Notes: generated by a model from the sequence alone, not told the origin. A stretch of 64,000 bases of DNA from a virus (IMGVR_UViG_3300030339_000018); one strand, 5' to 3'; positions 28,161 to 50,648 are shown, counted from the stretch's first letter. Numbers and translations are program-made.

Positions 28161-28974
28161 ATCTCTTATTTATTTTTTTAAATATTTATTTATTTTCTTC
28201 TACAAATTCTCCAATAATATATTCTGTACGAATTTTACCTACTACTTCGGCTTCACATGAACCACGAGGACAGCATTTAAATTCTTGGCATCTAGGACAC
28301 CAAATTAAATCCGTTTCTTTTGTTGGTATATCAGGTATTACCATTGTTTATTAATTAAATATTCATAAATTTCTCTCCAATCAGTTTCTGGATCGAATCC
28401 AGCTTTATCATCCAAAAGGACACTAAAGTAAAACTTTCTATTAAAATTACCAGTATTAGTATTATGAATATCAGTATTTTTATTAAAGAAATCAACAGTT
28501 ATATTATTTTCTTTAAACATTTGTCTAATACGCATTAATTCAGATGGGTAGCACGAACTCCATAAAATAATTTTAGATTCAGGTAATGAACTAATTAATT
28601 GTAAGCATTCTAAAGCATCATTATTAATCCATTCATTTTGATTAGTAGTATAATTACTTTTTAAACATACACCATGAAGATCAATACACCAATAAATAGT
28701 CTCCCAATTGCGCTCATCCATTACTGAATAAGCACGTTCGATTGATTTGATTATTGACATACTATTAAATTTTAGTACAAGAACAAGTTGCTTTGTTCAA
28801 AGCATAAGAACTAGTTCTAAATCTATCTTCTGGATCTGGGATTGCTTTTAAAGAAAAATCAGTTGTATTTACATGGTATCCTTTAGATTTCAAATGATAT
28901 GCAATTATTTCTTTAATATCTGCAACACTTAAATTAATAGTTACTATTTCGCTAATTTCCATATTAGATATTTT

Positions 28975-29868
28975 TCATTTTAATAAAAATTTAAAAAGTT
29001 TTTTATGTTCTCCGACCAAAATATTTTCTACCTCTGGAGTCATTTTAACCCATTTTAAGGCAGCTATATCATCTTGAGGTTGTGGAGATCCAAACAAAGA
29101 TTTACACTTGTAAAAATGAGTCATAATAGAACGATCTGTCATACCTCTATATCTCCAATCTTGTATCTTCATTGAAGTTACAAATTCAAAGTTGGATAAT
29201 TCAAGTCCTGTTTCTTCTCTTCCTTCACGTTTTGCTGCAGCTTCGTCTGATTCATCTTTAATGTCAACGAATCCACCTACAAACCTCCACTCTTTTTCAT
29301 TAGGTTTTTGACCTAATAATAATTCACCTGCTTCATTAAAAATCGCTACATCTACAGTTGAGTAAACTGTTGGATATTGATTATAAACTGAATAAATTAT
29401 ACCTGCTCTAAATTCAGAGGAAGATTTAACCTTTTTAGATATATCAACACGAATATCAGTTGCAGAGATAAAAGTATCAGGAGTTAATTCCTGAGTCTTA
29501 AATTTACCTTCATAAAAAGGAATAAATGAATCTTTACTTCCGTAAAGAGTTACTGATTCCATATTAAAGATATCTCTAATTTTTTCATCAAGTTTATTAC
29601 TCCAAACTGCATTAGACTTTTGGTCTCTCAAAGGGAATATACCAGCAATACGTAAATCATTCCCAAATGCCTCTTTTAACATCAAACTACGAGTTAAAAA
29701 ATCCATTGGATGTTTCATATTACCTATTGTAGGACTAACGCCTAGAAAGATAATAACTTTATCATGTTTGCTAAGTACGAAGTTAATCAATTTAATATGT
29801 TCACTATGTAGCTCATTAGTTTGAAATCTTCCAATTATAACTCCTACATCTGTTGTTTTAATATCCAT
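28975..29868 (-). CDS. bifunctional NMN adenylyltransferase / Nudix hydrolase (NadM-Nudix-like); ends at a TGA that is in frame with the next ORF (28765..28962)
   Basis: N-terminal GVIIGRFQTNELHSEH nucleotidyltransferase motif; C-terminal Nudix box GGFVDIKDESDEAAAKREGREETGLE. Confidence 0.6.
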   Translation of the reverse strand: MDIKTTDVGVIIGRFQTNELHSEHIKLINFVLSKHDKVIIFLGVSPTIGNMKHPMDFLTRSLMLKEAFGNDLRIAGIFPLRDQKSNAVWSNKLDEKIRDIFNMESVTLYGSKDSFIPFYEGKFKTQELTPDTFISATDIRVDISKKVKSSSEFRAGIIYSVYNQYPTVYSTVDVAIFNEAGELLLGQKPNEKEWRFVGGFVDIKDESDEAAAKREGREETGLELSNFEFVTSMKIQDWRYRGMTDRSIMTHFYKCKSLFGSPQPQDDIAALKWVKMTPEVENILVGEHKKLFKFLLK

Positions 29869-31963: not shown

Positions 31964-34761
31964 TTACTTTTTTATAAAGTTGTGATACTTCTTTACCATT
32001 GTAAAGTTCTGGATATTTTACTTTAAAGTAGTTCATGCAATCTTTCATTTCATTAAATTTATGAAGTATTAAGATAGCTTCAATTTCAATAGAAGTTAAT
32101 TGTTTAGGGATAAACATCTCAAGAATTTCATTTTCACCTTCTACATGACATTCAATATTACTTTGAATTAATTTCTTAATTATCGCAATACATTCATCAT
32201 CTGTAATAGAGGTTATTCGTTTAGGAGCTTTTTCAACTCTCTCAAATTCTCCCAGGACAACTCCCAGGAGAACTCGTGCTTCTTTATAAGTATTACGATA
32301 CTCAATAACTTGATCTTTTACCATAATGATATAGTATAGTTAGGATTAGATTGCATAATTACAAATAATCTACCTTGAGATCGTTTTGATAAACATCCAG
32401 TTAATAATTTGAAGAATTTATCTTTTTGATCCAATTTATAAACTTTTACATAAGAATTTTTCTCTTTAACTACTTCTCCTAAACATTCTTTCAATTGTCT
32501 ACCAAAATTGCCTACACCATATCCACAATAGTTGATATAGATTGCACTTTCTGAAGTTAAGTTAATTTCTCCTGTTTCATTGTATATTTGTATCTGCATA
32601 ATTATTCAGCAAAGAAATCAGGTTGAAAATATTTCAATGAACGTTCATTCATTTTCAGTAAAAGATCACCTAAACTGAATGGAACTGCTTTGAGATAGAA
32701 ATCTTCTAGTGTATCTTCATCAACACAAGCAACTAAATCAGCACGTAATAAAGCTAATTCTAATGCTTTTTCTTTGTTGAATTTATCTTTCTTGTCACAC
32801 AATGCCCAACCCATTACACTTGGACCAGTAGCAACTACTACACCTATTGCAGTTTTAACTTCATTAATTTTAGCAACTGGACCTAATTTAGTATAATCAA
32901 TAAAAGGAACGAGTTTTGTTTTATACAAATACTCAATAAGAATTTTTTTGTTTTCACACATAATTTTTATTTTTTAATTGTTGTTATAATTATTTAATGT
33001 ATTTACAACCCATTCTCCAAATGTATCTTGAATTAATCCAGGATCATCTGTTTTAATGTATTGTAATCTACCCCATCCTTTTACAAGGATAATTTTTCTG
33101 TCACCATAAAATATTTCACCATCTTTAATAGAAAATAAAAGATTTTTAAAATTAAATTCTAAACCTTTTTCTCCATTTAAGATTTGTATAAGTACTGTTT
33201 TAGATTTTTCATCTACACGGCCAATCCACATCAAACACATATTACTTTCACTATCATAGATATATGGATCCCAATCTTTAAATGGTAGTTTATAATATTT
33301 ACTTAAAAATTCATTCATTAGTCAATTTTTTGATAATAGTTTAATAATTCTATACGTTTAGTATCAAATTCTTCTTTAGTGATAAGTTTGAAATTATCAT
33401 TTTTACTAGTTAGAATATCTAATCCTTTATTTCTTAAACCTTTATAATCTAAAAAATAATCATCTTTACAATCACTTGTTGGATGAAAATCAGTATAATC
33501 TTGTTTATTTTGCCTAACCTGAATTAAATCATAAGTATGTCCACCAGGATATCTAGGAATAAATGCAAATAGAATTAATCCTTCTGCAAAAAAACATCCA
33601 TCATCTGTATATGCATAATATGCAGCTTCATCTGGAAGATCAACTTCTTTTTCAATTGTATTTACTGTTGTTGTTATTTTATTAACAGCTATTTTTATGA
33701 TTTCTTTCATAACTATTCAACGTTTTCTCTTAATGATAATAAGTCTTTAATTAAAGTTACATAAGCACTTCTTTTTGAAAGCTCTTCTTTATTTTTGGAA
33801 TAATCAATAGATTTAATATCCCACATATATTCACCACAACATTCACAAATACAATTATAATTAAATAATTTGAATTTTCTTCTTTCAACTTTATATAAAG
33901 CTAATAAACGTGGTGTAGGTAATTTTTCTAATTCTTCTTTTGATTTAGGTTCTAATATTTTCATATAACTTGATTAATTGTATCTAAAATAGATTGTTTA
34001 TCAATTACTGAAAAGTCTGTAACATCTCCACTATACATTTTAGACTTAGCATTTTCAGCAGCTAATTTAAGAAGTTGTTTTCCAAAATCTATATAAGATT
34101 CTCTTAAATGTGATTTAAATAAATTAATCATATTATCACCATCATCATCTATATAATCATGGACAGCTATATCTTTAATTATTTCTTCTATATTTATTGT
34201 TTTCTCCATTTATTCAAATTGAAATCCAATTTCTTTTAATTTATTATATACTTTACTACCACCATAATAATAAACATAAGCATTAAATACAATTTGATTA
34301 TCTATTTCAGTTTCAATTGGTTCACCATAGTGTTCTAAATCTGATGTTATTATAACATCTTCATTATGTAATAATCGTTTACATAAACGTATTTCTTTTT
34401 TCTTTTCAATTTTAGTAAATATTTCAAATACTAAATCACCTTCCAATGTTAAATGTTTCATATTATTTCTCCTTTATCAATTTCTATTTGTCTGTCATAT
34501 CTAATTAAACTCTTTAAAATAAGATTTTTTACATCTTTCTTTCCAAGATTAGAGTTTTCTATATTACCGAGAACTTCAAATACAAAATTTGATTTTACAG
34601 ATGTAACTAATTTTCCAAATAATAAAAATTGTTTCTTTATTCGTTCAATTGTATCATCATAAAACTTAGTTGTAGTAAAACAATATTCATCAGTACATAT
34701 TTCATATTGGAATTTTCTTCCATCAATAACAATATCTTTCATATTTTATATTTTAAATTAG

Positions 34762-34796
34762 ACGAAAAAAAGCCACCTCAATTAAGAAGTGGCTCT
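34762..34796 (-). terminator. rho-independent (bidirectional) terminator hairpin at the low-coordinate end of the tRNA island
   Basis: Hairpin agccacCTCAATTAAGAAgtggct flanked by an A6 run on plus (T6 on minus) and a T-rich tail on plus. Confidence 0.5.
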
Positions 34797-34848
34797 TTAT
34801 ATTTTTATTGTACCCGGGCCGAGAATCAAACTCGGATTTGAACGTTAG

Positions 34849-34921
34849 TATGCAAGCTGCGAATCGAACGCAGGACACTCGGTTTAGAAAACCGATGCTC
34901 TATCCCCTGAGCTACAAGCAC
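34849..34921 (-). tRNA. tRNA-Arg (anticodon TCT); acceptor stem carries U.U mismatches
   Basis: D arm GCTCAGGGGATAGAGC, anticodon arm TCGGT-TTTCTAA-ACCGA, T arm CTGCG-TTCGATT-CGCAG. Coordinates approximate. Confidence 0.55.
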
Positions 34922-34924
34922 ATA

Positions 34925-35512
34925 TTACTTATCTTTAGGATAGCGAAATTCATTTCTTGCACTATTCTTATTCTTTGATTTAAATGTATCTAATTGAGAA
35001 TCACAGTTAGGACAAATACACCTATAATTTTCTCTAATGTTATTTGCTGCATCTCCATCAATATGATCTAATATTAAAACTAAATGTTTATTATTCCATA
35101 CAGAATCCATCCCACAAATTGCACATTTATTACCTTGTTCTTTAAGAATAAAAGGTTTTACAGTAGTAATACTATAATTACCTCTTTGATATTCTTTTGG
35201 AGAAGTAAGAAAATAATCATATAATTCTTTAGATTGAAATTCTTTTTGACATGTAATTCCACAATATTTTCTTTGAGTAGTTGTATCTAAAGGTTTTCCA
35301 CAATTTACACAAACTAAATCAGCATATTTATTTACACCTTTTCTAAATGTTTCAGATTCATTTATCTTTCTACGTTGTGGTAATTCAATTCCAAATTTTT
35401 TAGCAACTTTTCTTATATTTGAACCAGTGCAACCATAAGTTAAACCAATTGTATTATAAGGGATATTTTGTACTAAAATTAACTCCTCTAATTCTTCTTT
35501 TATATATTCCAT
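34925..35512 (-). CDS. HNH endonuclease with Zn-ribbon repeats
   Basis: ...LVLILDHIDGDAANNIRENYRCICPNCD... HNH motif; TAcCTTTG promoter-like motif at about 35529-35545 upstream. Confidence 0.5.
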   Translation of the reverse strand: MEYIKEELEELILVQNIPYNTIGLTYGCTGSNIRKVAKKFGIELPQRRKINESETFRKGVNKYADLVCVNCGKPLDTTTQRKYCGITCQKEFQSKELYDYFLTSPKEYQRGNYSITTVKPFILKEQGNKCAICGMDSVWNNKHLVLILDHIDGDAANNIRENYRCICPNCDSQLDTFKSKNKNSARNEFRYPKDK

Positions 35513-35630
35513 TTTTATTAATTATTTATACTACAAAGGTACAAATAATTTTTGATATAAAATAGTTTGAATTAGTTAATTTATGTTAAAAGTGTACTGT
35601 TCTATTCAGTTGAACTATCCAGGCATTTAG

Positions 35631-35701
35631 CAAGTACACTAGGATTCGAGCCTAGATCAGGAGTTTTGGAGACTCTTATGCTACCATTGAATCATATACC
35701 T
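35631..35701 (-). tRNA. tRNA-Trp (anticodon CCA)
   Basis: Anticodon loop CTCCAAA; T arm CTAGG-CTCGAAT-CCTAG. D arm is imperfect. Approximate coordinates. Confidence 0.45.
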
Positions 35702-36138
35702 ATTTTAATTAATATCACATATTAAAGCTTTTCTTTTTTCACAAACTCCATAATAAAATTTAAGATTTTTTAATCCTCTCAAATAAACATTTTGTCTTTG
35801 TGTATCATCCCAATGAATTACAATTTTTGATTTTATAGTTTTATCTGTAATCCAATAATTTGGTTTATTTTTAATATATTCAATAAAATGTTTAATACAA
35901 TTTTTTGCCCATATTAAACTCTTTAATCCATCTTTTCCAGTTACTTTTAAAAATTGATAACCTTCTTTTCTTTTACCAATTTGTAATTTAACATAATACC
36001 AATCACATTTATTAGTACTATCACATTCTAATTCTAAAAAAAGAATTTGACCTGCTTCATTTTTAGTAATATAATAATAAATATCTTTATATTTATTATT
36101 AGGTTTTAATACAATTTCATACATATTATTAATTTTTG

Positions 36139-36219
36139 TACATATAGCAGGACTCGAACCTGCACGCCCCTACGAGCATCGGAGTCTAAACCCGATATGT
36201 CTACCATTCCATCATATAC
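36139..36219 (-). tRNA. tRNA-Leu (anticodon TAG), type II
   Basis: Anticodon loop TTTAGAC, long variable arm GCTCGTAGGGGCGTGC, T arm GCAGG-TTCGAGT-CCTGC. Confidence 0.6.
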
Positions 36220-36226
36220 GCATTTG

Positions 36227-36299
36227 AGCCAAAGGTGGGGCACGATCCCACAACCCTCTCATTACAAGTGAGATACTCTACCAATTGAGCTACTTCGGC
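36227..36299 (-). tRNA. tRNA-Thr (anticodon TGT)
   Basis: GCCGAAG acceptor, D arm GCTCAATTGGTAGAGT, anticodon arm TCTCA-CTTGTAA-TGAGA. Confidence 0.65.
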
Positions 36300-36435
36300 A
36301 ATTTTAGAGGGTCACTATTAACCTCTTTGATGTTGTTTCTTCTTATTCGTACACGTGTTTGAAATTCAGACTGGACTACATTTCTTTACCAGATAGTTTT
36401 AAATATATAAGACTAATGAAAACCTATATATCTTG

Positions 36436-36522
36436 CGGAGAGTACCGGATTCGAACCGATGTGCCCTGTTACAGGCCACTAGTTTAGCAAACTAGCACGA
36501 TAAACCACTCTGCCAACTCTCC
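36436..36522 (-). tRNA. tRNA-Ser (anticodon GCT), type II
   Basis: GGAGAGT/ACTCTCC acceptor, anticodon arm CTAGT-TTGCTAA-ACTAG, long variable arm, T arm ATCGG-TTCGAAT-CCGGT. Confidence 0.65.
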
Positions 36523-37073
36523 AATACATTACTTATGTTGCATATGATAGTGTTTAACTCTCAAATCAACTTTACTTTGTTTTAATTTACTATTAGCAAA
36601 TAAGTTATAAACAGGTTCTTCTAATATGTGATGAATAACATATATAGGAAAATTTAATATATCTATACCAATACAATATTTAACTATCATATTTTTCTTG
36701 CAAATTTATGAATCAACCATCCAAAAACTAAAACAGCCCCTATTATAATTCCAATAATAATTCCAATTCCTATTTTAAACATTATTTTTTAATTTACGTT
36801 TTTGACCATGATATTTAATTTCAATCATAAATATTCATAAGTGACCTTCTTTTTTTTTCCAATCATCTCCATATGATAAACCGCATTAATAGGTCTATCT
36901 TCAATTATACAAACTCCATTCCCAATATAATTATACGATCTTGCATACATTTTATCATTGGTGGAATCTCTAATACATATTTCTTTACCTTTTAAATACT
37001 GCCAATTAATTATAACATCATTACATAATTGATGAAAACTTCCTTGAACTATTTGCATATTATTTAATTTTTG

Positions 37074-37161
37074 GGTGAAAGGTGGGATTCGAACCCACAT
37101 TAGTCATTACAACATTCCTGATTCACAATCAGGTCGGCATCCCTTACCGGCTACAATCACC
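37074..37161 (-). tRNA. tRNA-His-like (anticodon GTG), non-canonical: two U.U pairs in the acceptor stem and about 18 nt between the anticodon and T arms
   Basis: Anticodon arm CCTGA-TTGTGAA-TCAGG, T arm GTGGG-TTCGAAT-CCCAC, possible G-1. Confidence 0.35.
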
Positions 37162-37171
37162 ATATAAAAAG

Positions 37172-37254
37172 TGGGACATGATGGAGTCGAACCACCCGAG
37201 TCCGAAGACAACTGCTTTACAGGCAGTCCCGCTACCCCTACGGTATAACATCCC
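37172..37254 (-). tRNA. tRNA-Tyr (anticodon GTA), type II
   Basis: Anticodon arm ACTGC-CTGTAAA-GCAGT, long variable arm TTGTCTTCGGACTCGG, T arm GGTGG-TTCGACT-CCATC. Confidence 0.6.
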
Positions 37255-37554
37255 ATATAATAGTCTTTCCTATCAGTCATACTTCCTTTAAATTCTGTTT
37301 AGATAATTCATCCTAACGGCAAAGCAGTATTGTATAAACCAGTATTCTTTAAAATTATGCTTGTACCGGAGTATTAGCTTCTTTAATTTTTTCAGCAATT
37401 TTAGTATTAACTGCTTTTAAATTTGCTTGTGCTTGTTCAACTGTAACTATTTGATCATAAGCTAATGCTTTTAAATCATTTAATGACATTGTATCAAGAT
37501 TTACTTGTTGTTCATTCATTGTTTTAATTTTGACTATTATTTATCTCTTTTTAT

Positions 37555-38031
37555 TTATCTTACATTTATAATATTACTAAGTGTACCTTTACTACTAATA
37601 TTATATTTTAACATTAAATCTTTATAAGAATATCCAGAGTCACGATCAGCTTTAATTTCTATAACTAATTCATCTGAATATTTTTTATGTGCATTAGAAG
37701 CTTTATTAATTCTTATTTCTTTAGATTGATCCATCATATTATCACTATGTGTACCTATTTTAAGATTATCCCAAGAATTATTTAAAGAATTACTATCCAT
37801 ATGTCGAATCATTATATTTTCTTTATAAATTTCTTCTCCAAATTTTTGATATGCTTGTAATCTATGTACTCTAACTTTAATAGTTTTACCTAGTAATTTT
37901 GTACTAATAGTTTTATAACCATTATTAATTGTGCCTAATAAAATTTTTCCAGATTTACTAATGCATGTACCATCTTTTTCAACTTTGTACCCTAAATCAA
38001 AAAGTACTTTTTCATAATATGTATATTCCAT
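37555..38031 (-). CDS. HNH_3-family homing endonuclease
   Basis: ...VHRLQAYQKFGEEI...IRHMDSNSLNNSWDNLKIGTHSDNMMD... It is preceded directly by a tRNA-like gene. Confidence 0.5.
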   Translation of the reverse strand: MEYTYYEKVLFDLGYKVEKDGTCISKSGKILLGTINNGYKTISTKLLGKTIKVRVHRLQAYQKFGEEIYKENIMIRHMDSNSLNNSWDNLKIGTHSDNMMDQSKEIRINKASNAHKKYSDELVIEIKADRDSGYSYKDLMLKYNISSKGTLSNIINVR

Positions 38032-38044
38032 ATAATAATTTAAG

Positions 38045-38127
38045 CGGAAGAAGTAGGTCCCGACCCCAAGATGTTTCCGTCCGTACAGATTTCAAGTCTG
38101 TCTTGCTACCTAAGCAATTCATCTTCC
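38045..38127 (-). tRNA. tRNA-Ser-like (anticodon TGA if minus strand), type II-like with aberrant T arm; possibly a pseudo-tRNA
   Basis: Acceptor GGAAGAT/TTCTTCC, D arm TTGC-TTAGGTA-GCAA, perfectly palindromic anticodon stem ACAGA-CTTGAAA-TCTGT. No canonical TTCRA T loop. Confidence 0.3.
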
Positions 38128-38206
38128 ATTAACGAGATTGCTTTGAACCTCTAAAGTCAACCTATATTGATACATATAGGATTTTAGTCTTTCTGGAGAA
38201 AGAATA

Positions 38207-38992
38207 TTATTTTTTAACTATATTTAAAATATCATAAAATTTACACCATTTTCTTATAGCATTATCTGTAACACCATAAAATTTACCAACAGCAACAAAT
38301 GAAATTAATTCTTTAAATTTAGATATAAGTTCTTCAGAAGTAGGTCTTTTACTACCATTAATTTTGTGTGAACATTCTTGAGAACAACATTTATTTTTTC
38401 TAGATTTACCAATTAATTCTTTATTACAGTATAAGCAATATTTAGGAATAATTTCTTTAATTTCTTTAACTTTAATTTCTTTAATTATTTCAATTGGAAT
38501 AATATTTTCATTCACAATAAGACTTTCTTCTTTTTTACCTTTACCTCTATAATTATCAGTAAAAGCGTGACAATTAGGGCATAACATTTGTAAATTTTCA
38601 ATACAATGATTAGTATTTACTCCATCAATATGATGTAATTCTAAAGGAATAGGTTCTTCCATTCATTCAGTATTATTACATTTTTCACATCTATATTCCT
38701 TAATACCTTCTTTTAATAATCTTTTATTTAATTTTGATGTAGAAAAAGTAGAATAAGATACTAAAATTTCTTCAATTGGTTGGGCAAATTTAATTTGTGT
38801 ATATCTTAATCCAACATTCCATACTTGCCCAGTAAAATGATCTGTATTTAAATCATATTCTTTAATTTTAGCATGAATTGTTTTGTAATTTCCTCCAACT
38901 GCTTTTAATCCTATTTGTCGGCATACTCCAGCAATAGATAAATTTTCTTTTACTGCAATTCTAATTTGTTCTTCTGTGTACTTAGTTCTCAT
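38207..38992 (-). CDS. HNH homing endonuclease with N-terminal HTH and C-terminal DNA-binding module; single gene containing an in-frame TGA at 38663-38665
   Basis: ORF-track pieces 38663..38992 and 38207..38662 are in one frame. TGA lies between YRCEKCNNTE and MEEPIPLELHHIDGVNTNHCIENLQMLCPNCH, so the CxxC...HH...N...CxxCH HNH motif spans the TGA. TAcCTTTG promoter-like motif at about 39009-39025. Confidence 0.6.
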
Positions 38993-39074
38993 TTTTATAA
39001 TTATTTAATACACAAAGGTACTAAATAATTTTGAGTCTACCAAATCGAATTATGTTAAAATATATTAAAAATAG

Positions 39075-39155
39075 TACCCGTAGCAGGAGTCCAACCTGCA
39101 CGCTTTTAGGCGCTCCCGCTTAAAAGGAGTGTGTCTAGCATTTCACCATACGGGT
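39075..39155 (-). tRNA. tRNA-Leu (anticodon TAA), type II
   Basis: ACCCGTA/TACGGGT acceptor, anticodon arm CTCCT-TTTAAGC-GGGAG, variable arm CGCCTAAAAGCGT, T arm GCAGG-TTGGACT-CCTGC. Confidence 0.55.
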
Positions 39156-39209
39156 ATTAATTGATTATTTTATATATAATCATAGTTTTAAGAACCATTC
39201 GTTCTTTGT

Positions 39210-39280
39210 TGTCCCATCTAGATTCGAACTAGAGCTATTTGAGTCAAAGTCAAATGTGTTAGACCACTACACTATGGAAC
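39210..39280 (-). tRNA. tRNA-Gln (anticodon TTG)
   Basis: Anticodon arm TTTGA-CTTTGAC-TCAAA; T arm CTAGTTCGAATCTAG. Confidence 0.6.
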
Positions 39281-39548
39281 AATATTATTTTTCTATGCAG
39301 TAAGTGCTTAGACTTGCCTATCATACCTATCAGAATCATTTAATCTGGCACTAATCTTGGTTAGAAAAATTTAATTTAAAGGTACTGAATATCTTAACCC
39401 ACCAGTACAGTCTCAATTCAATTGTATCGCTGTATACGAATACCTTCATGAGGATGGAAGAATTGCTCACACGTTACCTTTATATTGTAAGAATATCATC
39501 ATTAGAAATACAATAAATTGTATTTCATCACACTACTATATTCTTGAG

Positions 39549-39619
39549 CGGGAAGTGTAGGAATCGAACCTACGCCTATTGATTAACAGTCAACTGCTCG
39601 ACCTTCGAGCTAACAACCC
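39549..39619 (-). tRNA. tRNA-Asn (anticodon GTT); acceptor stem with two U.U pairs
   Basis: D arm GCTCGAAGGTCGAGC, anticodon arm GTTGA-CTGTTAA-TCAAT, T arm GTAGG-TTCGATT-CCTAC. Confidence 0.55.
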
Positions 39620-39742
39620 AGTTTATAATTTTTGCTTACCATCGCTTCACTGTTAAAATTACAAAAATACATCAGTTACCATTATCGTTGTTTCTGCATC
39701 AACGCTTCATCCGAAGAGGTCTATAGTCGGTTACTATAACTG

Positions 39743-39816
39743 AGCGATAAGTGGGTCTCCAACCCACAACCTCCGACTTGGAAGGACGGCACTCTAAGCA
39801 ATTGAGCTATTATCGC
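39743..39816 (-). tRNA. tRNA-Gly (anticodon TCC)
   Basis: GCGATAA/TTATCGC acceptor, anticodon arm CCGTC-CTTCCAA-GTCGG (one U.U), T arm GTGGG-TTGGAGA-CCCAC. Confidence 0.5.
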
Positions 39817-40248
39817 ATTTTAATTTAATACTATATCAGGGGTTTTCTATTGTACATTTAGCGAGCTCCCTTATACACATCATGACTAAATTCATGTTAT
39901 TTCCATTTTACAGAAACTATAATATTAAATTATTTTATTAGTTGTAATCTATCAAAGATTAAACCATTATTTTCTATTGCTATGGCTGTAATTGTGCCAC
40001 ATAAATCTGGTTCATGAAATTCAGAAAATGTATATCCATTGTTTGCTAACTTTGGAATCCATTCATCTAAATTTGCTGATAAAAAGAATAAATAGTTGTT
40101 ATTCCATTCTTGTGTTTCTTTATTATCAAGGAGGAATTGTGCTACTGCATGTGCTCCTTGGACACATCCATATACGCTATTTAATCTATTATTAATTAAT
40201 ACGTATAGTTTTCTTTCTTCTACTTGTTCCATTATTATTATTATTTTG

Positions 40249-40320
40249 TGCACCGCCCCAGACTTGAACTGGGAACCTATCGGTTAAAAGCCGAGAGCTC
40301 TACATTGGAGCTAGCGGTGC
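40249..40320 (-). tRNA. tRNA-Lys (anticodon TTT)
   Basis: GCACCGC/GCGGTGC acceptor, anticodon loop CTTTTAA, T arm CCCAG-TTCAAGT-CTGGG. Confidence 0.6.
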
Positions 40321-40481
40321 GAGTTTGTTGGAATAGGCAAATCACCAACTATGATACATGCATTGAAAAGAATCACTTTTACTAATTGTATCTTTCACAT
40401 AAAAGTAGATAATGTGATTAGCATTAAACGTACTTTTTCTATACTAAGTGATGTAGCAGAGCAGTTTATTAAACTGTTGTG

Positions 40482-40553
40482 TGAGCCTAATAGGAGTCGA
40501 ACCTATATCCCAGGATTCGTAATCCTGTGTTCTATCCATTGAACTATAAGCTC
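40482..40553 (-). tRNA. tRNA-Arg (anticodon ACG)
   Basis: Anticodon arm CAGGA-TTACGAA-TCCTG, T arm ATAGG-TTCGACT-CCTAT. Confidence 0.6.
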
Positions 40554-40563
40554 TCATTAATTG

Positions 40564-40636
40564 TGACCTCTGCTGGATTTGAACCAGCGACACCTAGATC
40601 TTCAATCTAGTGCTCTACCAACTGAGCTAAGAGGTC
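40564..40636 (-). tRNA. tRNA-Phe (anticodon GAA)
   Basis: GACCTCT/AGAGGTC acceptor, D arm GCTCAGTTGGTAGAGC, anticodon arm CTAGA-TTGAAGA-TCTAG, T arm GCTGG-TTCAAAT-CCAGC. Confidence 0.7.
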
Positions 40637-40683
40637 AAGCAAGATTTTTACTTCTAGGAAGAAATACCTTGAAAAAGAACCGT

Positions 40684-40753
40684 TGCGATATCAAGAATTG
40701 AACTTGAATCAAATGGATATGAGCCAAACATTCTACCATTGAACTATATCACA
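40684..40753 (-). tRNA. tRNA-Met/Ile2-type (anticodon CAT), elongator-like
   Basis: Acceptor TGTGATA/TATCGCA, anticodon loop CTCATAT, anticodon stem with two U.U mismatches, T arm TCAAG-TTCAATT-CTTGA. Confidence 0.5.
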
Positions 40754-40754
40754 G

Positions 40755-40828
40755 TGGGGAAAATAGGACTTGAACCTATGACCTCCCGGGTATCAGCCGG
40801 ACGCTCTAACCAACTGAGCTATATCCCC
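40755..40828 (-). tRNA. tRNA-Ile (anticodon GAT)
   Basis: D arm GCTCAGTTGGTTAGAGC, anticodon arm TCCGG-CTGATAC-CCGGG, T arm ATAGG-TTCAAGT-CCTAT. Confidence 0.65.
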
Positions 40829-41164
40829 ATTATTTTTCTAAATATTGGAATATAAAAATCTATGGATTGTATATCTTTTCTATGAATAGATACTTTATAA
40901 TTATCATATCTTTTAGATGTATTAGGTTGTCCAATTGGATCTTTCCATATTCTAAAATCTTTCATTACAAAATTTATGTATTCTCCTTCAAATACAACAT
41001 CTATTGGATAATGATAATACTCATTCATACCACTAGGTTTTAATTTATGTAGTATAATCCAACAAATTCTTTTATTACTTAATAATCTTGGTAAACTTTT
41101 AAAAACTTTTCTTGTCATTTGGATGTATTTTATTAATTAATACTGTCCGCCATTTTAATAATTT

Positions 41165-41239
41165 GAGCTCATACTCCGATTTGAACGGAGGAAATATTGG
41201 TTTTGCAGACCAACGCGTTAGACCACTTCGCCATATGAG
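41165..41239 (-). tRNA. tRNA-Cys (anticodon GCA)
   Basis: GCTCATA/TATGAGC acceptor, anticodon arm TTGGT-CTGCAAA-ACCAA, T arm TCCG-TTCAAAT-CGGA. Confidence 0.65.
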
Positions 41240-41402
41240 CATTTAAAAATTCAGTTCTTGCATAAGAAATAATAAACGTTAATTAGTTTTTTGTACGGGA
41301 GTTACACCTATTTATTATATTTACACAAACTAACTTATGCCTAAGTAAATAGCCCACTATATACGCTTCCACTATTTGTTTGCTTCAATCTGAATTTTAT
41401 TG

Positions 41403-41535
41403 TTGCGAGCGCCGGATTCGAACCGTGTCTCGGGGTTATAGCTTTATTCTATTCTAAAATAAATTTTAGTTTGAACATTTCACAGACTTTTAAACCTGTA
41501 TGAGCCCAGTGAGCTACCATTGCTCCACCCTCGCA
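41403..41535 (-). tRNA. initiator-like tRNA (anticodon CAT, GGG/CCC anticodon stem) interrupted by an intervening sequence of about 62 nt in the anticodon loop
   Basis: 5' half GCGAGGG-TG-GAGCAATGGTAGCTC-A-CTGGG-CTCATA..., 3' half ...CCCCG-AGAC-ACGGTTCGAATCCGG-CGCTCGCA. Between them lies about 62 nt of AU-rich sequence with the hairpin CTAAAATTTATTTTAG. Confidence 0.4.
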
Positions 41536-41549
41536 TCTGTTATATTTTG

Positions 41550-41622
41550 TATAAGCGGTGAGACTCGAACTCACGACCACATGCTCCCAAAGCATGCATT
41601 CTACCAACTGAAATACGCCTAT
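41550..41622 (-). tRNA. tRNA-Pro (anticodon TGG)
   Basis: Anticodon arm CATGC-TTTGGGA-GCATG, T arm GTGAG-TTCGAGT-CTCAC. Confidence 0.6.
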
Positions 41623-41729
41623 ATTTAATTAGAAATCCAATTTTTCAGGATCTTTGAAAGATAAAAACTCATTTGCGAATAATAATCCGTTCTTTAAATA
41701 AATATCTTGTTTCATATCTAAATCATTTG

Positions 41730-41802
41730 CAGTACTGATGGGAATCAAACCCACTAAATCTCGATAGACAGTCGAGTGCACCAATCGTTATGCGCCAGTA
41801 CT
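41730..41802 (-). tRNA. tRNA-Asp (anticodon GTC)
   Basis: AGTACTG/CAGTACT acceptor, anticodon arm CTCGA-CTGTCTA-TCGAG, T arm GTGGG-TTTGATT-CCCAT. Confidence 0.6.
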
Positions 41803-41808
41803 ATTTTT

Positions 41809-41882
41809 GTAATCGGTATCGGATTCAAACCGATGTTACTTCATAGAAGGTGAAGTGTGCTAGGTCACTGCACTAACCGATC
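41809..41882 (-). tRNA. tRNA-Glu (anticodon TTC)
   Basis: D arm GTGCAGTGACCTAGCAC, anticodon arm CTTCA-CCTTCTA-TGAAG, T arm ATCGG-TTTGAAT-CCGAT. Confidence 0.6.
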
Positions 41883-41885
41883 ATT

Positions 41886-42806
41886 TTATTTTAATAACTT
41901 AATATCCTTTTGTTTAGATGGTAATTCATAAAATTTACACCATTTTCTTATTGTATTGTCACTTACTCCAAAATCCTTTCCTAATTTTAAAAAAGAATTC
42001 ATCTTAATTAATTCTAATAAATCTTCTTTAGAGGGTCTTTCAACTTTTCTTTGATTTAAAGCTCTTAGTTTTTCTTTTTCAGAATAACCATTTTCGTCAC
42101 GAAATACTTTTTCTTTAATCTTAGGCATTGTAACAATACCTATCGTTTGATAAATAATTTCTTTTGTTTCAAGAGAATGTAAAACTATTTGAATAACTTC
42201 ATCAATATTAGTTTTAATCTGATTTTCAGCAATTCTAATAATATTCCAACCATTGTTTTTTAATAACAAATCCTTTTCGCCATCTTTAATTTTTCTTTCC
42301 TCTAACAAATGTTGAGAACCATCTATCTCAATAGCTAACTTTTCATTAATGAACGCAAAATCAATAAAATATGGAAATACACTATATTCTCTTGCAATTA
42401 AGTATTTTTTATCTAATTCAAATCTTTCTAAGGCTTCTTTAAATAAATTTTCAGGATAAGATATAGTGGAAGTTCTCCAAGCTGTATTCTCTGGATGTTC
42501 TTTCATATATTTTAGTCTAGCAATTCTTATTTTTTCTTTAGACTCATCAGAATGATGTAATGTATACTTTTTAGAAGCAATTTTTCGTGCTTCAGAAAAA
42601 GAACGAGTAAGTCCTTTTAAAATTCTTTGAACTATACAAGTAGATAAATCATATTCTTTTTTAATATCATTTATAGAATAATTTAATTCTATATATTTAT
42701 TTTTAATATCTAACAAATTTAATGCTGTTAATTTACATGCATTTTGATGGGCAATTTGTCCGCCTTTATTAGAAAATTCTAGTCCACATTTTTCACAAAT
42801 ATTCAT
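41886..42806 (-). CDS. homing-endonuclease-like protein: N-terminal Zn finger, central restriction-endonuclease-like (DUF559/Vsr-like) domain, C-terminal HTH module
   Basis: CEKCGLEFSNKGGQIAHQNAC; FAFINEKLAIEIDGSQH; C-terminal KLGKDFGVSDNTIRKWCKFYELP, the same module found in the HNH at 38207..38992. TAtCTTTG promoter-like motif at about 42814-42828. Confidence 0.4.
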   Translation of the reverse strand: MNICEKCGLEFSNKGGQIAHQNACKLTALNLLDIKNKYIELNYSINDIKKEYDLSTCIVQRILKGLTRSFSEARKIASKKYTLHHSDESKEKIRIARLKYMKEHPENTAWRTSTISYPENLFKEALERFELDKKYLIAREYSVFPYFIDFAFINEKLAIEIDGSQHLLEERKIKDGEKDLLLKNNGWNIIRIAENQIKTNIDEVIQIVLHSLETKEIIYQTIGIVTMPKIKEKVFRDENGYSEKEKLRALNQRKVERPSKEDLLELIKMNSFLKLGKDFGVSDNTIRKWCKFYELPSKQKDIKLLK

Positions 42807-43441
42807 TTTATACTATTTTATATAGTACAAAGATAATAAAAATATTTGGTTAGGACAATAGAATTTCAAAATTAATTAAAAATAAGTTTAATGGATAAGT
42901 TAATCAAAAATATAAATATCTAACACGAGTTAAATATTTATATTTCTAACCAATTATTCGATAGGGATGTGAAAATTATACCTATTGTAGTAGGTATAAT
43001 TTATATAAAGTACCATCAATTGCTTCTAGTAAATCATCCAGAATAGCATGCATATGTGTGTATTTTGCATCTATAACATCATATCTATTTTCATAGATCA
43101 TTTCTTTTATACCCTCAAGATACTCTGTTGCAGTTAATTTATATCCATAAATTAAACTACTAAGATCATACTCTACTACTTTTTGTTCACAGCCCTGATA
43201 AACCTCTATTAATCTATCTGCAATTTCAGGAACTTCTTGATAAAAATCATTTAATGCTAAATGTTTAATACCAGAACTTGCTCCTTGGATTTGTAAATGT
43301 TTGATATGTGACATCGTCCCTATGGAAACTATTGTTCCAAAAAAACTTTCAGGTTTTGTTTTAATTTTACCCATATTTTAATATTTTTTATTATTTAATT
43401 ATCTTAATCTGTACAAAACTTTAATTCTTTTTCTATTTTTA

Positions 43442-43981
43442 TTAGAATACATTATTTTTTAAATACTGATTATAAACATAAGCAGCATGTAATTCACAGA
43501 TAAAATATCCTAAAAATATTTTTCTTTTTAATACTGAATCCCATATATTAGATAGCCATTTCTTCCTAGTTTCTACCCAACATACACCTGTATATTGAGA
43601 TGAAGTATTAGTTCTAACATACCCATCACTTACATTATATCTATTAGAAACAATTTCCAAATTATCTAAATAATTATTTAATTTATTCCCATCAATATGA
43701 TTAATAACAGTAGTTCTTTTATTTACTATATAATCAAGAAAAGACATAGCAACTAAAATATGAATACAATAACTTTTTCTAATTTTATTTTTTGTAAGAT
43801 TTACAGATAAATAATTAGTTCCACATGGTTTTAATATTTTATCTTTTTTAGCTTTATTATTACCTAATGATAATATATTACCAAAATTACTACATTTATA
43901 TAATCCTTCAAATGTAGGTATATCTTTCCAAATTTCTTGCATATTTTCCTTTGTTTTATTTAATATGCAAAGATACAACAT
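43442..43981 (-). CDS. HNH endonuclease fused to an AP2-like DNA-binding domain; true start probably an internal ATG near 43942
   Basis: ...INHIDGNKLNNYLDNLEIVSNRYN... followed by YTGVCWVETRKKW (AP2 YxGVxW). TAtCTTTG promoter-like motif at about 43973-43988. Confidence 0.5.
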   Translation of the reverse strand: MLYLCILNKTKENMQEIWKDIPTFEGLYKCSNFGNILSLGNNKAKKDKILKPCGTNYLSVNLTKNKIRKSYCIHILVAMSFLDYIVNKRTTVINHIDGNKLNNYLDNLEIVSNRYNVSDGYVRTNTSSQYTGVCWVETRKKWLSNIWDSVLKRKIFLGYFICELHAAYVYNQYLKNNVF

Positions 43982-44030
43982 TTTTTCGACATAAAAAAAT
44001 TAAAATCAAGTTTTATTTAAAATTTCTTAA

Positions 44031-44762
44031 TTACTGTTCATTTGTTGGTTTAAGCCAAAGTTTGGTATGTTTAAAAATATACAACTTTAAATCCCTATAT
44101 TTACACAACATTTCTAAAGTTTTAAATGTATCAAACTTAAAACATTTGTATAACTCTTCACGAATACGTTCTTCAGACACAACTCCCATTTTGTATTCAT
44201 AATCATAGTTCTCAATAACTTCTTGCATATTTGCTGGAATAGCTAAATTTTTAGTTAATGCAAAACGAATAGCTCTTAAAATTCTAAGGGGATCATCATT
44301 AAATGTTACATTACATGGAAGAGGTGTTCTAAGAATTCTAGCTCTTAAATCAGCTTCTCCATTAAATGGATCAATAATATTTCCATCTTCATCTTTAGCC
44401 ATAGCATTAACTGTAAAATCCCTACGTTCAAGATCATCATATAATGAACCAGGTACAATAATAGGTGTACGAGTTCCAGGTATATAACCAATTTCCTTAC
44501 GTGCCATTACAAAATCAGCAACACCTTTATATTTATGTCCTACTGGAAATTTAGCACGAATTGTATAACAATCTTTAGTTACTAAAAATATTTCAAACAT
44601 ATCTCTTCTTAAGATTTGTTCCAATAAAATAAACATATCACTAGCTTTACTATGTGAAGCAAGTAATATATCATTTGGAACAGCAACATAATCGACATCT
44701 TTATTTACTAATCCAAGAAATTCATCTCGAATCTTACCACCTACTTCATAGAATTTAAACAT
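44031..44762 (-). CDS. minimal class II nucleotidyltransferase (CCA-adding enzyme / poly(A) polymerase head domain)
   Basis: VGGKIRDEFLGLVNKDVDYVAV, i.e. the GGxxRD...DxD head-domain signature; 243 aa. Confidence 0.55.
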   Translation of the reverse strand: MFKFYEVGGKIRDEFLGLVNKDVDYVAVPNDILLASHSKASDMFILLEQILRRDMFEIFLVTKDCYTIRAKFPVGHKYKGVADFVMARKEIGYIPGTRTPIIVPGSLYDDLERRDFTVNAMAKDEDGNIIDPFNGEADLRARILRTPLPCNVTFNDDPLRILRAIRFALTKNLAIPANMQEVIENYDYEYKMGVVSEERIREELYKCFKFDTFKTLEMLCKYRDLKLYIFKHTKLWLKPTNEQ

Positions 44763-46692
44763 AATTTATAAATAATTTTTTACAATTTGATTTTTTAGGG
44801 AATACAATACTACCATCTAAAATATAGCACCAATAACTAAATTTATATGAATTATACATATAATTAGATATTTCATTAATATTAATTATTTTAAAATAAA
44901 TATAATTTTGCATTTTTAAATCATATCCTATAATAGATTTAATAGGAAATTGCAAAGATTCTTTTTGTATAATATTTAATTCTTTTTTAAAAAAATTAAA
45001 CATAATTATTTACTTTGTTGTTGAGAAAGTCCATTAATAAGTTCTTCAACCATTTTAGTAACTTTTTCATTTAATTCAGGATCAGTAATACCATTTTTAT
45101 CAGTTATAATAACTTGAATAGTATATTGTTCATCATTTTTTATAAAATTTTCTATCATTTTTTCTTTTTTTTAAAATATTTTAATAAAGGGTGAAATATT
45201 TTTGCATTAATCCATAAATAATTAATATATAAACAAATAACTACACATACACTAATCCAACTTAAAAAAATAAATCCTGCAGGTATAGAATCATTATTAT
45301 TATCATTAACCCAAGCAAATAAAAACCAACTAATAACAATACCAATTATATAAATTATTAAATATATCATTCTTCTTTATGATTAAAGTAACAAACAGTT
45401 GGATTATTTTTTTGAATATCAATATCAGGGTATTCAGCATGAAATTGTTGTAAATTAAATGGAGTAGTAATCAAATGCCATCCGCTTTTAGTTGGGATTG
45501 ATGCAATTATTTTACTTTTAATATAATTAACAGCACTCCCATTCTCAGTAGTTACTACTTGAGGTAAACAATGATAATCAATAAATGCACACATTATGGG
45601 TGAAATTTCTGGTTCATCTACATCAATAATCCAACGTTTCTGTCCGATATTAATTTTTGATCCAAGTTCTAATTCAGTTGCAGGTCCTTTACCATCTTCT
45701 TCATCTTCTAAATATCCTCCACCTATTATAGTATCAAATAATCTATAAGTATAATCAAATTGTTTAAACCTTAACCTATCTGCTAATTGACAATTAAGTT
45801 CATAAGCAGCCCTCTCCATACTTTTCTCATTAAGATTTATATATGCACGAGCAGTAAATATTTCACATAGTTGAATAATTTCTTGTTCATGTTTCTGAAA
45901 ATCTTCTATACTTTTTATATAATAAGTCTTAATACATCGAGCATTATTATTACGTCCTCTATCGAATTCAGCACAATCTTTTTTACGTTTAAGAATTTGT
46001 AAATGATAAAAAGAATCTTTTGTTGTAAATGATAATAAAGATGCTATTTGTTTAAAATTATTTACTATCATTTTCCAGTTAATTTGTTAATATCAATAAC
46101 AATAGCATTTGAATTATATTTTACAGAACATAATAATTGACAATCTAATACATCTTGTAAAGAATATTGAGGTTTATTAAGATCAATATATAATTGAGCT
46201 AATTGTTCTGTCGAAAATTCTTTAATATGACTACTATAAAAAGTAGTATCAAAATGTGTAGCTGGCATTAATTTAAAATCATATAATCTTACACCAAAAA
46301 AAGTACCACCTTTACGAATTTCTTTACCATCTTCTGTTATAAATAAAACAGGATTTTTATTTTTATTAATAAATCTCCAAGCAGCTTCTTTTGTAGAGAA
46401 ACGTTTAACTTCAGAATTACTAGCCACAGTATAATTACTAGTTTGTTTAGGAGGATTTAATGTAGCTAATACTACATACCACCAACTATCTCCTGAAAAA
46501 ATAGTTACATTATCTTCCGTTAAAAATAATGCACTAACTCTTTGCCAATATTCTGGATATTCTTCAAAATATGCATCATTCCATTTAGAACTATAATAAG
46601 TTTTAAAACTATATAATTCATTAATATTTTCTTGAGTTACAATATCTCCAATATTTAATATAGAAAATATTCCAGGGTATTTTTTTATTAAT

Positions 46693-50622: not shown

Positions 50623-50648
50623 AATAATTTATTTTATGTTATTAATTG

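Follow-up and report, generated by a model that had tools for sequence, protein, structure and literature searches.

The tRNA island considered here lies on the minus strand at positions 34848-41882 of the window, the 64,000-nucleotide stretch of viral DNA that was analyzed. It comprises 20 solid and two marginal tRNA genes detected with ARAGORN and Rfam, between which HNH endonuclease genes and small ORFs are scattered. The phage originates from peat metagenomes and has a genome of ~168 kb or more, with 27% GC and a GC3 of ~6%; the minus strand of the window is already tiled by code-11 ORFs. Under default settings, ARAGORN identified 19 tRNAs in 34848-41882, all on the minus strand, and one more at 50648-50725. 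A tRNA-Asp at 41730-41802 was added by Rfam, which also matched, slightly below its threshold, a tRNA-Tyr at 37174-37252 (likewise an ARAGORN call) and an insertion-bearing CAU tRNA at 41404-41534; relaxed ARAGORN settings added a Ser(UGA)-like gene at 38044-38124. The resulting set agrees with the anticodons listed in an initial annotation of this DNA, as does the lack of Ala and Val tRNAs, none of which was found in the island by either program.

The tRNA scan covered ~121 kb, i.e., 72% of the 168,189-bp ENA contig ERZ27249832:k141_1775190 (the window together with records L109, L110, L139, L142, L144, and L146); the remaining ~28% (~47 kb) corresponds to record positions 1-18.9k and 139.7-168.2k. 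Every tRNA or tRNA-like gene detected in the 121 kb is located at 34.8-50.7 kb of the window or ~2 kb past its right end.

TGA as a stop codon in early genes and a tryptophan codon in late genes

Seventeen genes in the window end in TGA, and in 10 of them the stop overlaps, as ATGA, the first ATG of the gene that follows, as at 59361-59364 (minus strand). TGA accounts for 14% of the stops in early genes. The 17 TGA stops, including the 10 overlaps, imply that RF2 is active during early gene expression. Nearly the whole window consists of early and middle genes; these follow the standard code, with TGA functioning as a stop. The premise of the initial annotation, that TGA is read as sense, holds at six sites of the window, where it encodes Trp, but TGA is otherwise mostly a true stop in this region.

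The six sense sites are distributed over four genes and stand against 230 TGG codons. Each has coding sequence on both sides and lacks a restart codon, in-frame TAG or TAA codons of this kind were not found, and at five of the six the homologs or a paralog have Trp opposite the TGA. Three sites belong to a tail-fibre-like gene of 596 codons (18553-20343, minus strand), which is flanked by hairpin terminators, is missing from this position in relatives, and contains a single TGG. Its TGAs occur at codon 21 (20281-20283, motif GEKIN-W-LNVINRP), codon 51 (20191-20193, QVNSD-W-NAISGVAEIL, with W in 59 aligned homologs), and codon 377 (19213-19215, LRYNGTE-W-INGT), all on the minus strand; the homologs carry W at all three positions and are uninterrupted across them. 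The gene for a Gly-rich membrane/coiled-coil protein (20923-21726, minus strand), whose counterpart comes immediately after that of the major head protein in more distant relatives, contains a single in-frame TGA and lacks TGG. This TGA (21571-21573, minus strand, GGRGG-W-GGGY) corresponds to W in the relatives L007, L023, and L024, and the gene calls of other assemblies break at the same place. The two late-type genes of the window contain four TGA versus one TGG, in comparison with two versus 229 in the rest of the window (p = 6e-7).

Within the island itself, an HNH homing-endonuclease gene (38207-38992, minus strand) has one in-frame TGA (38663-38665, minus strand) in the motif CEKCNNTE-W-MEEPIPLELHHIDG, which is supported by alignment with a relative and a paralog. 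The HNH gene of the related phage, whose product is 38% identical, has TGA at the same codon, and the catalytic motif downstream is retained despite this divergence; the paralog in the window (34925-35512) has a TGG-encoded W at this position. The last site, AELPF-W-ASSPEQ (320-322, minus strand), is codon 17 of a DUF1064-like gene (1-370, minus strand) that extends past the left end of the window; its reading as sense is based on coding continuity alone, and the gene yields a single 172-aa product on one contig in the JGI calls. The TGAs at 320, 19213, 20191, and 20281 are identical in the ENA and JGI assemblies.

Outside the window, this codon is used far more densely in a convergent late module that consists of giant genes and an endolysin gene. 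The module (L146 and L142) contains 21 TGA versus ~38 TGG codons, so that ~36% of its Trp codons are TGA, compared with 6:230 in the window (Fisher p = 9e-12); individual late genes have up to five TGAs, and the M15-type endolysin gene contains three TGA and no TGG. The sites include the DUF192 motif FWMKDT and the M15 peptidase motifs QLIWEY and PDWVHVS. Recoding is concentrated in the late, structural, and lysis genes, in which TGA is a Trp codon, and the replication genes are in the standard code. Given the proportion of TGA among the Trp codons of the late module and its endolysin, this is a mixed-code (TGA→Trp) phage such as those described by Borges et al. (bioRxiv 10.1101/2021.08.26.457843).

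Search for a cognate UGA decoder

In agreement with the initial annotation, ARAGORN and Rfam revealed no tRNA with a UCA anticodon in the island, and ARAGORN gave none at any reasonable threshold. Calls of 'tca' that appeared when introns were allowed at very low ARAGORN thresholds were rejected, being on the non-coding strand or within ORFs. The negative result extends to the ~121 kb scanned with both programs, which include ~32 kb of the late module with the endolysin and both flanks, and tRNA-Sec is likewise absent from the ARAGORN and Rfam results. Since 121 of at least 168 kb were thus scanned without a tRNA(UCA) match, the earlier suggestion that the decoder resides elsewhere in the genome has become less probable. 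No TCA anticodon occurs among the 19 island tRNAs of the related phage that shares the HNH TGA; in a distant relative, the tRNA island includes a suppressor, tRNA(CUA).

No release factor, aminoacyl-tRNA synthetase, TilS, or tRNA deaminase was matched by Pfam among 40 window proteins, which bears out the first two of these absences as initially noted for the window, and none is present in the precomputed gene tables of the flanks. Neither an RF1/TrpRS 'code-change module' nor a gene with an anti-RF2 function was found.

Three structurally aberrant tRNA-like genes had initially been put forward as possible UGA decoders; none of the three carries a UCA anticodon. The gene at 38044-38124 (minus strand, relaxed ARAGORN) has a defective T arm, and its UGA anticodon reads the Ser codon UCA. 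The one at 41404-41534 (minus strand, Rfam and ARAGORN) carries CAU as its anticodon, with ~61 extra nucleotides inserted behind position 37, and is no UGA decoder. In the gene at 50649-50725 (minus strand, ARAGORN), the acceptor, D, and T arms are normal; the anticodon arm consists of a 3-bp stem with a loop of 14 nt, UAAACCCGCAAGGU, from which the UCA triplet is absent.

The phage tRNA-Trp(CCA) as a candidate decoder and competing explanations

The tRNA-Trp(CCA) of the island (35630-35701, minus strand) was examined through its Rfam alignment, in which the non-canonical pairs are marked, with positions confirmed by script, and through its comparison with tRNA-Trp genes of other phages. Because A27·C43 is a mismatch, the anticodon stem is 4 bp long; it carries a 7-nt loop (CUCCAAA). 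The D stem contains U11-A24 and a U12·C23 mismatch, and further features are G9, C54 in the T loop, A59, A1-U72, and G73. The 27-43 pair is also missing in the tRNA-Lys and tRNA-Met(CAU) of the island. U11-A24 is natural in many tRNA-Trp genes, e.g., those of Bacillus, and thus cannot by itself be taken as diagnostic.

An unpinned 27-43 pair or A24 lets tRNA-Trp(CCA) read UGA (PMC13092985). In E. coli, the C27A change increases UGA readthrough ~2.5-fold, and G24A (the Hirsh mutation) likewise favors the reading of UGA (PMC13092985). The exclusion of this tRNA on the grounds that C34 reads only UGG by standard wobble rules can no longer be considered safe, as it combines an unpaired 27-43 with A24, both of which are tied to UGA reading. 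We tentatively favor the phage's own tRNA-Trp(CCA) as the best candidate UGA decoder on these sequence features. The case for it is weak in view of two comparisons: A27·C43 is also mismatched in the closest GenBank tRNA-Trp homolog, that of the T5-like Pectobacterium phage DU_PP_V, which uses the standard code, and the related phage L123, which has in-frame TGA, has an intact 5-bp stem in its tRNA-Trp(CCA). The 4-bp stem thus does not track UGA reassignment among these relatives, and it occurs in 8.9% of bacterial tRNA-Trp(CCA) genes, mostly in standard-code genomes (PMC13092985).

In the proposed mechanism, UGA would be read through near-cognate C34·A pairing of Trp-tRNA(CCA), whose hinge may be loosened by A27·C43, by U11-A24 in the Hirsh configuration, and by U12·C23. 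The tRNA would be produced from the standard-code island and compete with the host RF2, so that TGA would be usable as an early stop and become readable once the phage tRNA has accumulated; an additional weakening of RF2 is probably required as well. With greater reserve, we suggest that the cell may be switched to UGA = Trp without any cognate suppressor, by an over-supplied, loosened tRNA-Trp(CCA) with 27-43 unpaired, A24, a D-stem mismatch, and C54. The effect reported in E. coli is modest; late genes with up to five TGAs need efficient decoding against RF2.

It is doubtful, although conceivable, that the decoder is instead one that escapes recognition by current tools: a highly non-canonical suppressor RNA, such as a tRNA-like gene with an abnormal anticodon arm, modification or editing of tRNA-Trp C34 directed by the phage, or the host tRNA-Trp combined with RF2 inhibition by the phage. 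Abnormal anticodon arms are found not only at 50649-50725 but also in the tRNA-like genes at 5211-5281 and 5364-5437 of record L110, and undetectable divergent suppressors have been invoked both by Borges et al. and for Zeta crAss-like phages (PMC12386605); however, no loop of these tRNA-like genes has a UCA triplet at a plausible anticodon position. C-to-U editing at C34 of tRNA-Trp is known from trypanosomatid mitochondria (PMC8677022), and many proteins of the window lack a Pfam match. Against this, neither a deaminase nor a TilS-like or RF-like protein turned up in the 40 proteins of the window or the gene tables of the flanks, and positive evidence is available for none of these routes.

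A conventional phage suppressor tRNA(UCA) outside the island, in the unscanned part of the genome, is an unlikely explanation; it might adjoin lysis or packaging genes, as in the Jade 'code-change module', and be switched on before late expression. Recoded phages usually rely on suppressor tRNAs, and the load of up to five TGAs per late gene argues for an efficient cognate decoder. Moreover, ~47 kb of the 168-kb contig fall outside the scan, related contigs reach 205-213 kb, and the tRNA(CUA) of the distant relative shows a suppressor inside a tRNA island. The absence of tRNA(UCA) from the 121 kb, which cover the island, ~32 kb of the late module, and the flanks, speaks against such a gene, as does its absence from the 19 island tRNAs of the recoded relative.

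It is very improbable that the in-frame TGAs are undecoded and mark pseudogenes, recently imported code-4 genes, or truncated products. The tail-fibre-like gene is indeed an insertion relative to all relatives, and HNH genes are selfish and often decay; nevertheless, if TGA at Trp positions is disregarded, the ORFs remain intact for 596-2,909 codons at a GC3 of ~6%, where TAA and TAG arise easily, and no in-frame TAA or TAG was seen. The HNH TGA persisted while the protein diverged, and the endolysin and giant late-module proteins are among those affected. A reading of TGA as selenocysteine or, as in code 25, glycine deserves virtually no credence: although site 21571-21573 falls in a Gly run, three relatives have W there, the alignments at four other window sites likewise show W rather than C or G (the DUF1064 site having no homolog alignment), tRNA-Sec is absent, no SECIS-like requirement is apparent, and TGA terminates 17 genes.

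Relation to known recoded systems

Recoding in the absence of a detectable suppressor tRNA has already been reported for TGA-recoded phages, and the gap itself is not new: a suppressor was detectable in only 35% of the TGA-recoded phage genomes of Borges et al. Similar to their code 4 phages (Agate, Jade, and others), it has a low GC content and replication genes in the standard code, and its TGA = Trp codons are concentrated in structural and lysis genes, including all three Trp codons of the endolysin. It differs in its peat/bog rather than gut origin, in sparser recoding (about one-third of the late-gene Trp codons), in the free use of TGA as a stop in early genes with many ATGA overlaps, and in the lack of a detected RF1/TrpRS module.

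The opal-recoded Zeta crAss-like phages 3075_90106, ctddo16, ctvkg4, and ctPTU4, for none of which a suppressor was identified, have genomes of 155-190 kb with a block of 18-25 tRNAs, polB in some, and ~30% GC (PMC12386605). The present phage shares with them TGA→Trp in structural and lysis genes, no tRNA(UCA) found (here in the ~121 kb scanned), and long runs of giant late genes opposite the replication block; this is a likeness by general features and not an assignment, and for its DNA polymerase no entry of the GenBank phage set exceeds 33% identity.

Outside phages, UGA is decoded in Blastocrithidia and Condylostoma by a tRNA-Trp(CCA) with an unpinned top anticodon-stem pair, and in Ca. 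Zinderia, where UGA = Trp, such a molecule is the only tRNA-Trp (PMC13092985). The phage tRNA-Trp is similar to these in its CCA anticodon, 7-nt loop, unpaired top anticodon-stem pair, genomic setting in which UGA stands for Trp, and absence of an accompanying tRNA(UCA) from the 72% of the contig scanned, and the use of UGA as both Trp and stop is shared with Condylostoma. The strict 'Blastocrithidia-like' class of PMC13092985 is without the A9C and G24A states; the phage tRNA has G9 but A24, which therefore places it outside this class and in the larger one that combines the 4-bp stem with the Hirsh state. Furthermore, unlike in Blastocrithidia-type systems, it is a phage tRNA that would act in a host that presumably has RF2, its function is that of a candidate, and its mismatch also occurs in a standard-code phage. 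The Hirsh UGA suppressor (E. coli tRNA-Trp G24A) offers a further parallel, with U11-A24, an unchanged CCA anticodon, and a loosened D arm and hinge. If true, decoding by the phage tRNA-Trp(CCA) would carry the 4-bp-anticodon-stem mechanism beyond protists and endosymbionts into viruses and, if general, would explain the approximately two-thirds of TGA-recoded phage genomes, including several Zeta crAss-like ones, without a detectable suppressor.

Dual use of TGA within and beyond the window

The window has a GC content of 27%, and its minus strand, which holds essentially all genes, is tiled by ORFs already under the standard code. Reading TGA or TAG as sense increases ORF length by only ~6%; therefore, neither code 4 nor code 15 is tenable for the whole window. 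TGA is a genuine stop in 17 of the 122 called genes, and 10 of these 17 stops lie in ATGA overlaps, in which the ATG is the first ATG of the following gene, the signature of a working stop codon. Thus, the claim of the initial annotation that TGA is read as sense does not extend to these genes, but it holds at six in-gene sites, which are flanked on both sides by coding sequence in the same frame and lack a restart codon. No TAG or TAA with similar in-gene behavior was found in the window.

The six sense codons are distributed over four genes. The TGA at 320-322, in a DUF1064-like gene, is recognized by coding continuity alone; the other five stand for Trp, as shown by comparison with homologs or a paralog. 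Three of them (19213, 20191, and 20281), set against one TGG, occur in a tail-fibre-like gene of 596 codons, the homologs of which are continuous across these sites and carry W in QVNSDWNA, LRYNGTEWVNG, and VNWSDILNKP. The single TGA of the Gly-rich gene (21571) corresponds to W in relatives, and that of the HNH endonuclease within the tRNA island (38663) aligns with a TGG-encoded W in a paralog; the HNH protein of a related phage, only 38% identical, has a TGA at the very same codon. The five sites other than the HNH site are also present in independent ENA or JGI assemblies and are thus not assembly errors. An example peptide spanning a TGA site reads ...QVNSDWNAISGVAEILNK....

Several further candidates were rejected. 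The TGA at 28975, at the end of the NadM/Nudix gene, is an ordinary stop, with the ATG of the next gene four codons on and in frame; the ORF at 48427-48900, which has no early ATG, uses a GTG start rather than TGA readthrough; and TGAs that seem to be in frame on the plus strand in relatives (e.g., locus L017) are antisense artefacts of minus-strand genes. The base following sense TGA (A 13, G 11, T 3, C 0 in the window and the flanking contigs L146 and L142) differs from that following stop TGA (T 8, A 8, C 1, G 0) for G (p = 0.003) and T (p = 0.012), a comparison that is probably confounded by coding versus intergenic composition and supports no conclusion.

The window corresponds to ~68.3-132.3k of the ENA contig ERZ27249832:k141_1775190 (168,189 bp), and many JGI peat or bog contigs match it at 99.97-100% identity. 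Exact-protein look-ups and IMG/VR contigs of the same phage extended the sequence to a total of ~121 kb (record positions 18.9-139.7k), i.e., 72% of the contig. On the left flank, genes for replication and nucleotide metabolism (RNR, dUTPase, ligase, and a tail-lysozyme-family gene) give way to a convergent block. Besides giant genes of 1322, 2909, 2882, and 1519 codons, this block encodes a DUF192 protein and an endolysin of the M15-peptidase type with TGA at all three of its Trp codons (example peptide ...DFDQLIWEYGTTK...). In-frame TGA and TGG number 21 and ~38 in the convergent block versus 6 and 230 in the window (p = 9e-12). Within the window, the two late-type genes (the tail fibre and the Gly-rich gene) contain four TGA versus one TGG; in more distant relatives, the Gly-rich gene is the immediate 3' neighbor of the gene for the major head protein. 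Relatives at 50-78% identity also have TGA at conserved Trp positions, including GLAQW in a tail lysozyme, KHGWDNF in a GIY-YIG endonuclease, and several in NrdD.

The phage is of the mixed-code TGA→Trp kind described by Borges et al. (bioRxiv 10.1101/2021.08.26.457843), in which replication genes keep the standard code and recoding affects structural genes and, above all, lysis genes. TGA is dual-use, its sense use being concentrated in late and lysis genes, mostly beyond the window. The phage is a new, environmentally distinct member of this group, and the phenomenon itself is known. Late genes get split by gene callers, with JGI applying code 4 to a single contig and code 11 to the rest; the annotation of such phages therefore needs a block-wise choice of genetic code. 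On L003/L140 (JGI Ga0302215_10000057), the public calls pass through TGA, giving a 172-aa DUF1064 protein and a giant gene of at least 1519 aa, both of which are broken up on the other contigs from this phage.

tRNA island and tRNA-like genes

ARAGORN identifies 19 tRNAs in 34848-41882 and one outlier at 50648-50725, to which Rfam adds tRNA-Asp (41730-41802) and two sub-threshold matches, namely Tyr (37174-37252) and a CAU tRNA with an insertion (41404-41534); a Ser(UGA)-like gene (38044-38124) is seen with relaxed ARAGORN settings. The complement is nearly complete and matches the anticodons listed in the initial annotation. Both programs bear out its central observation that the island has no TCA anticodon, and they likewise find no Ala or Val tRNA there. 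The 'tca' calls obtained from relaxed ARAGORN with introns were rejected, as they fall solely on the non-coding strand or within ORFs.

Three aberrant tRNA-like genes, all on the minus strand, had been suggested as possible TGA decoders; however, none of them presents UCA. The gene at 38044-38124 has the anticodon UGA and reads UCA Ser codons. The CAU tRNA at 41404-41534 carries an insertion of ~61 nt 3' of nucleotide 37, where archaeal and eukaryotic introns canonically lie; the insertion is far below group I intron size, and the gene may be a pseudogene or contain an unusual intron. The gene at 50649-50725 (52.8 bits) has normal acceptor, D, and T arms, and in its anticodon arm a stem of 3 bp closes a 14-nt loop, UAAACCCGCAAGGU, without UCA; the 310 nt upstream, reaching 51037, are non-coding.

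Other unusual elements lie on the minus strand of the window. At 37073-37160, tRNA-His(GUG) measures 88 nt and bears a long variable arm, an unusual architecture for a class I tRNA. In the recoded relative L123, four class-II-like tRNAs follow one another; an 82-nt tRNA-Trp(CCA) is among them, as is a tRNA whose anticodon loop has 6 nt. In tRNA-Lys(UUU) and tRNA-Met/Ile(CAU), at 40248-40320 and 40682-40753, positions 27-43 are unpaired, and the CAU tRNA has its two top pairs unpaired; under the 'extended superwobble' idea, a CAU tRNA with a 4-bp stem might read AUA. By eye, 35590-35629 and 34800-34847, which flank an HNH gene (34925-35512) and tRNA-Arg, look like tRNA fragments: one is similar to a 5' half that terminates with the loop CTTTTAA, and a T-arm-like hairpin makes up the other. 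A full-length tmRNA (53981-54400; Rfam 75.5 bits), which is not called by ARAGORN, has a tag reading frame ending in ...YAVAA. The flanking contig L110 contains, about 2 kb past the window's right end, 1.2 kb of non-coding DNA (4597-5822) with two further tRNA-like elements: a 'Phe(AAA)' scoring 30 bits and a second element whose loop reads GAAGAGG. Many JGI contigs break near this stretch (window ~63.8-65.3 kb). A distant relative, L124 (IMGVR_UViG_3300003332_000015), encodes an amber suppressor tRNA(CUA) at 11928-12000 within a 23-tRNA island.

Candidate decoders of UGA

TGA-recoded phages lacking an identifiable suppressor represent a recognized open problem: a suppressor is detectable in only 35% of TGA-recoded phage genomes (Borges et al.) and in none of four opal-recoded Zeta crAss-like genomes, which measure 173-177 kb and encode 18-25 tRNAs (PMC12386605). 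The missing decoder is therefore an already documented gap and not new. The present phage offers a compact case, with a clearly mixed code, a near-complete tRNA set, and one specific candidate tRNA, which makes the decoder question directly testable. What the analysis adds is the dual use of TGA in this phage, the rejection of the aberrant tRNA-like genes as UCA decoders, and the phage's own tRNA-Trp as a specific, testable candidate decoder.

This tRNA-Trp(CCA) (35630-35701, minus strand, 72 nt) displays A27·C43, U11-A24, a U12·C23 mismatch, C54 instead of T54, A59, and a normal 7-nt loop, together with the bacterial Trp identity elements A1-U72 and G73. The initial annotation had set it aside by standard wobble rules, an argument overtaken by a report that tRNA-Trp(CCA) with an unpinned top anticodon-stem pair decodes UGA in Blastocrithidia and in Condylostoma, where UGA stays a stop as well (PMC13092985, 2026). 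According to the same study, the sole tRNA-Trp of Ca. Zinderia, in which UGA specifies Trp, is of the unpinned type, unpinned tRNA-Trp(CCA) raises UGA readthrough in E. coli ~2.5-fold, and the Hirsh G24A state exerts its effect at that hinge too. We propose that the phage tRNA-Trp, with its loosened stem, would read UGA as a near-cognate codon and that, made early, it would build up to produce a timed switch to UGA = Trp. Since the gene sits in the standard-code island, early synthesis and accumulation are possible and would fit such a switch.

Near-cognate decoding is advanced tentatively, as a quite possible explanation, for several reasons. The most similar GenBank tRNA-Trp, that of the standard-code T5-like Pectobacterium phage DU_PP_V, likewise has A27·C43, and the mismatch is therefore not diagnostic of recoding. 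A 4-bp stem occurs in 8.9% of bacterial tRNA-Trp(CCA) genes, mostly in standard-code genomes (PMC13092985); the 27-43 pair is absent from the island's tRNA-Lys and tRNA-Met(CAU) too; and in L123 the odd 82-nt tRNA-Trp, with its long variable arm, has a 5-bp stem. Moreover, genes with up to five in-frame TGAs need efficient decoding against RF2, and no anti-RF2 function was found, while the decoder search spans 72% of the contig.

An unrecognized decoder, a modification, or RF2 interference is rather doubtful as the explanation; the 40 window proteins and the precomputed flank tables gave no Pfam match to a release factor or aaRS, as initially annotated for the window, nor to a TilS-like enzyme or tRNA deaminase. 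A conventional suppressor encoded in the remaining 28% of the contig is unlikely: ARAGORN and Rfam detect no tRNA(UCA) in ~121 kb of the 168-kb contig (with the threshold relaxed to E ≤ 1 for the left-hand 54 kb), and none of the 19 island tRNAs of a related phage with the same HNH TGA (213-kb IMG/VR contig) has a TCA anticodon. That the in-frame TGAs are not decoded, or specify other amino acids, is highly improbable beside the Trp residues with which they align.

Relatives and neighboring genes

No close relative was found among GenBank phages by megablast of the island region (34000-46000) or by a protein search in which the best DNA polymerase match is ≤33% identical. Pattern searches of IMG/VR for tRNA-Trp orthologs and for the gene at 45367-46071 gave no match, and the right-flank sequence gave nothing in a first metagenome scan. 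With the major head protein of ~95-kb relatives as a query for the capsid gene of this phage, the best 120 matches all belong to that other group, and a CCA-adding enzyme query was uninformative, yielding 80 unrelated phage loci that have few tRNAs. The tail-fibre-like gene (18553-20343, minus strand), together with a small ORF (20397-20568), is an insertion: all relatives examined lack it and have the 99-aa and 98-aa genes side by side.

Gene sets at 13705-15663, 44031-44762, and 25823-29868 (minus strand) comprise a tRNA-repair type (a kinase-like AAA_33 protein, an RNA ligase, and a CCA-adding enzyme), NAD salvage (NAMPT and NadM-Nudix), and an MgtC-family protein. A helicase gene (region 6254-9547, minus strand), which forms one uninterrupted ORF of 410 codons in the related phage L007, is split into 8569-8823 and 6263-7297, with a GIY-YIG endonuclease ORF (7271-8437) between the pieces and an HNH gene (8825-9547) adjoining. 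The promoter pattern TTTG-N19-TAnnTTTG, which is of Bacteroidota type, is not enriched (2 versus 1.07 expected). The motif GTACCTTTGT, allowing at most one mismatch, has seven occurrences against a chance expectation of 3.7, all of them on the coding strand (8524, 9571, 21773, 35533, 39012, 55816, and 61370, all minus); at the sites checked, homing-endonuclease genes and the Gly-rich gene follow 25-55 nt downstream of the motif, which may be a phage promoter.
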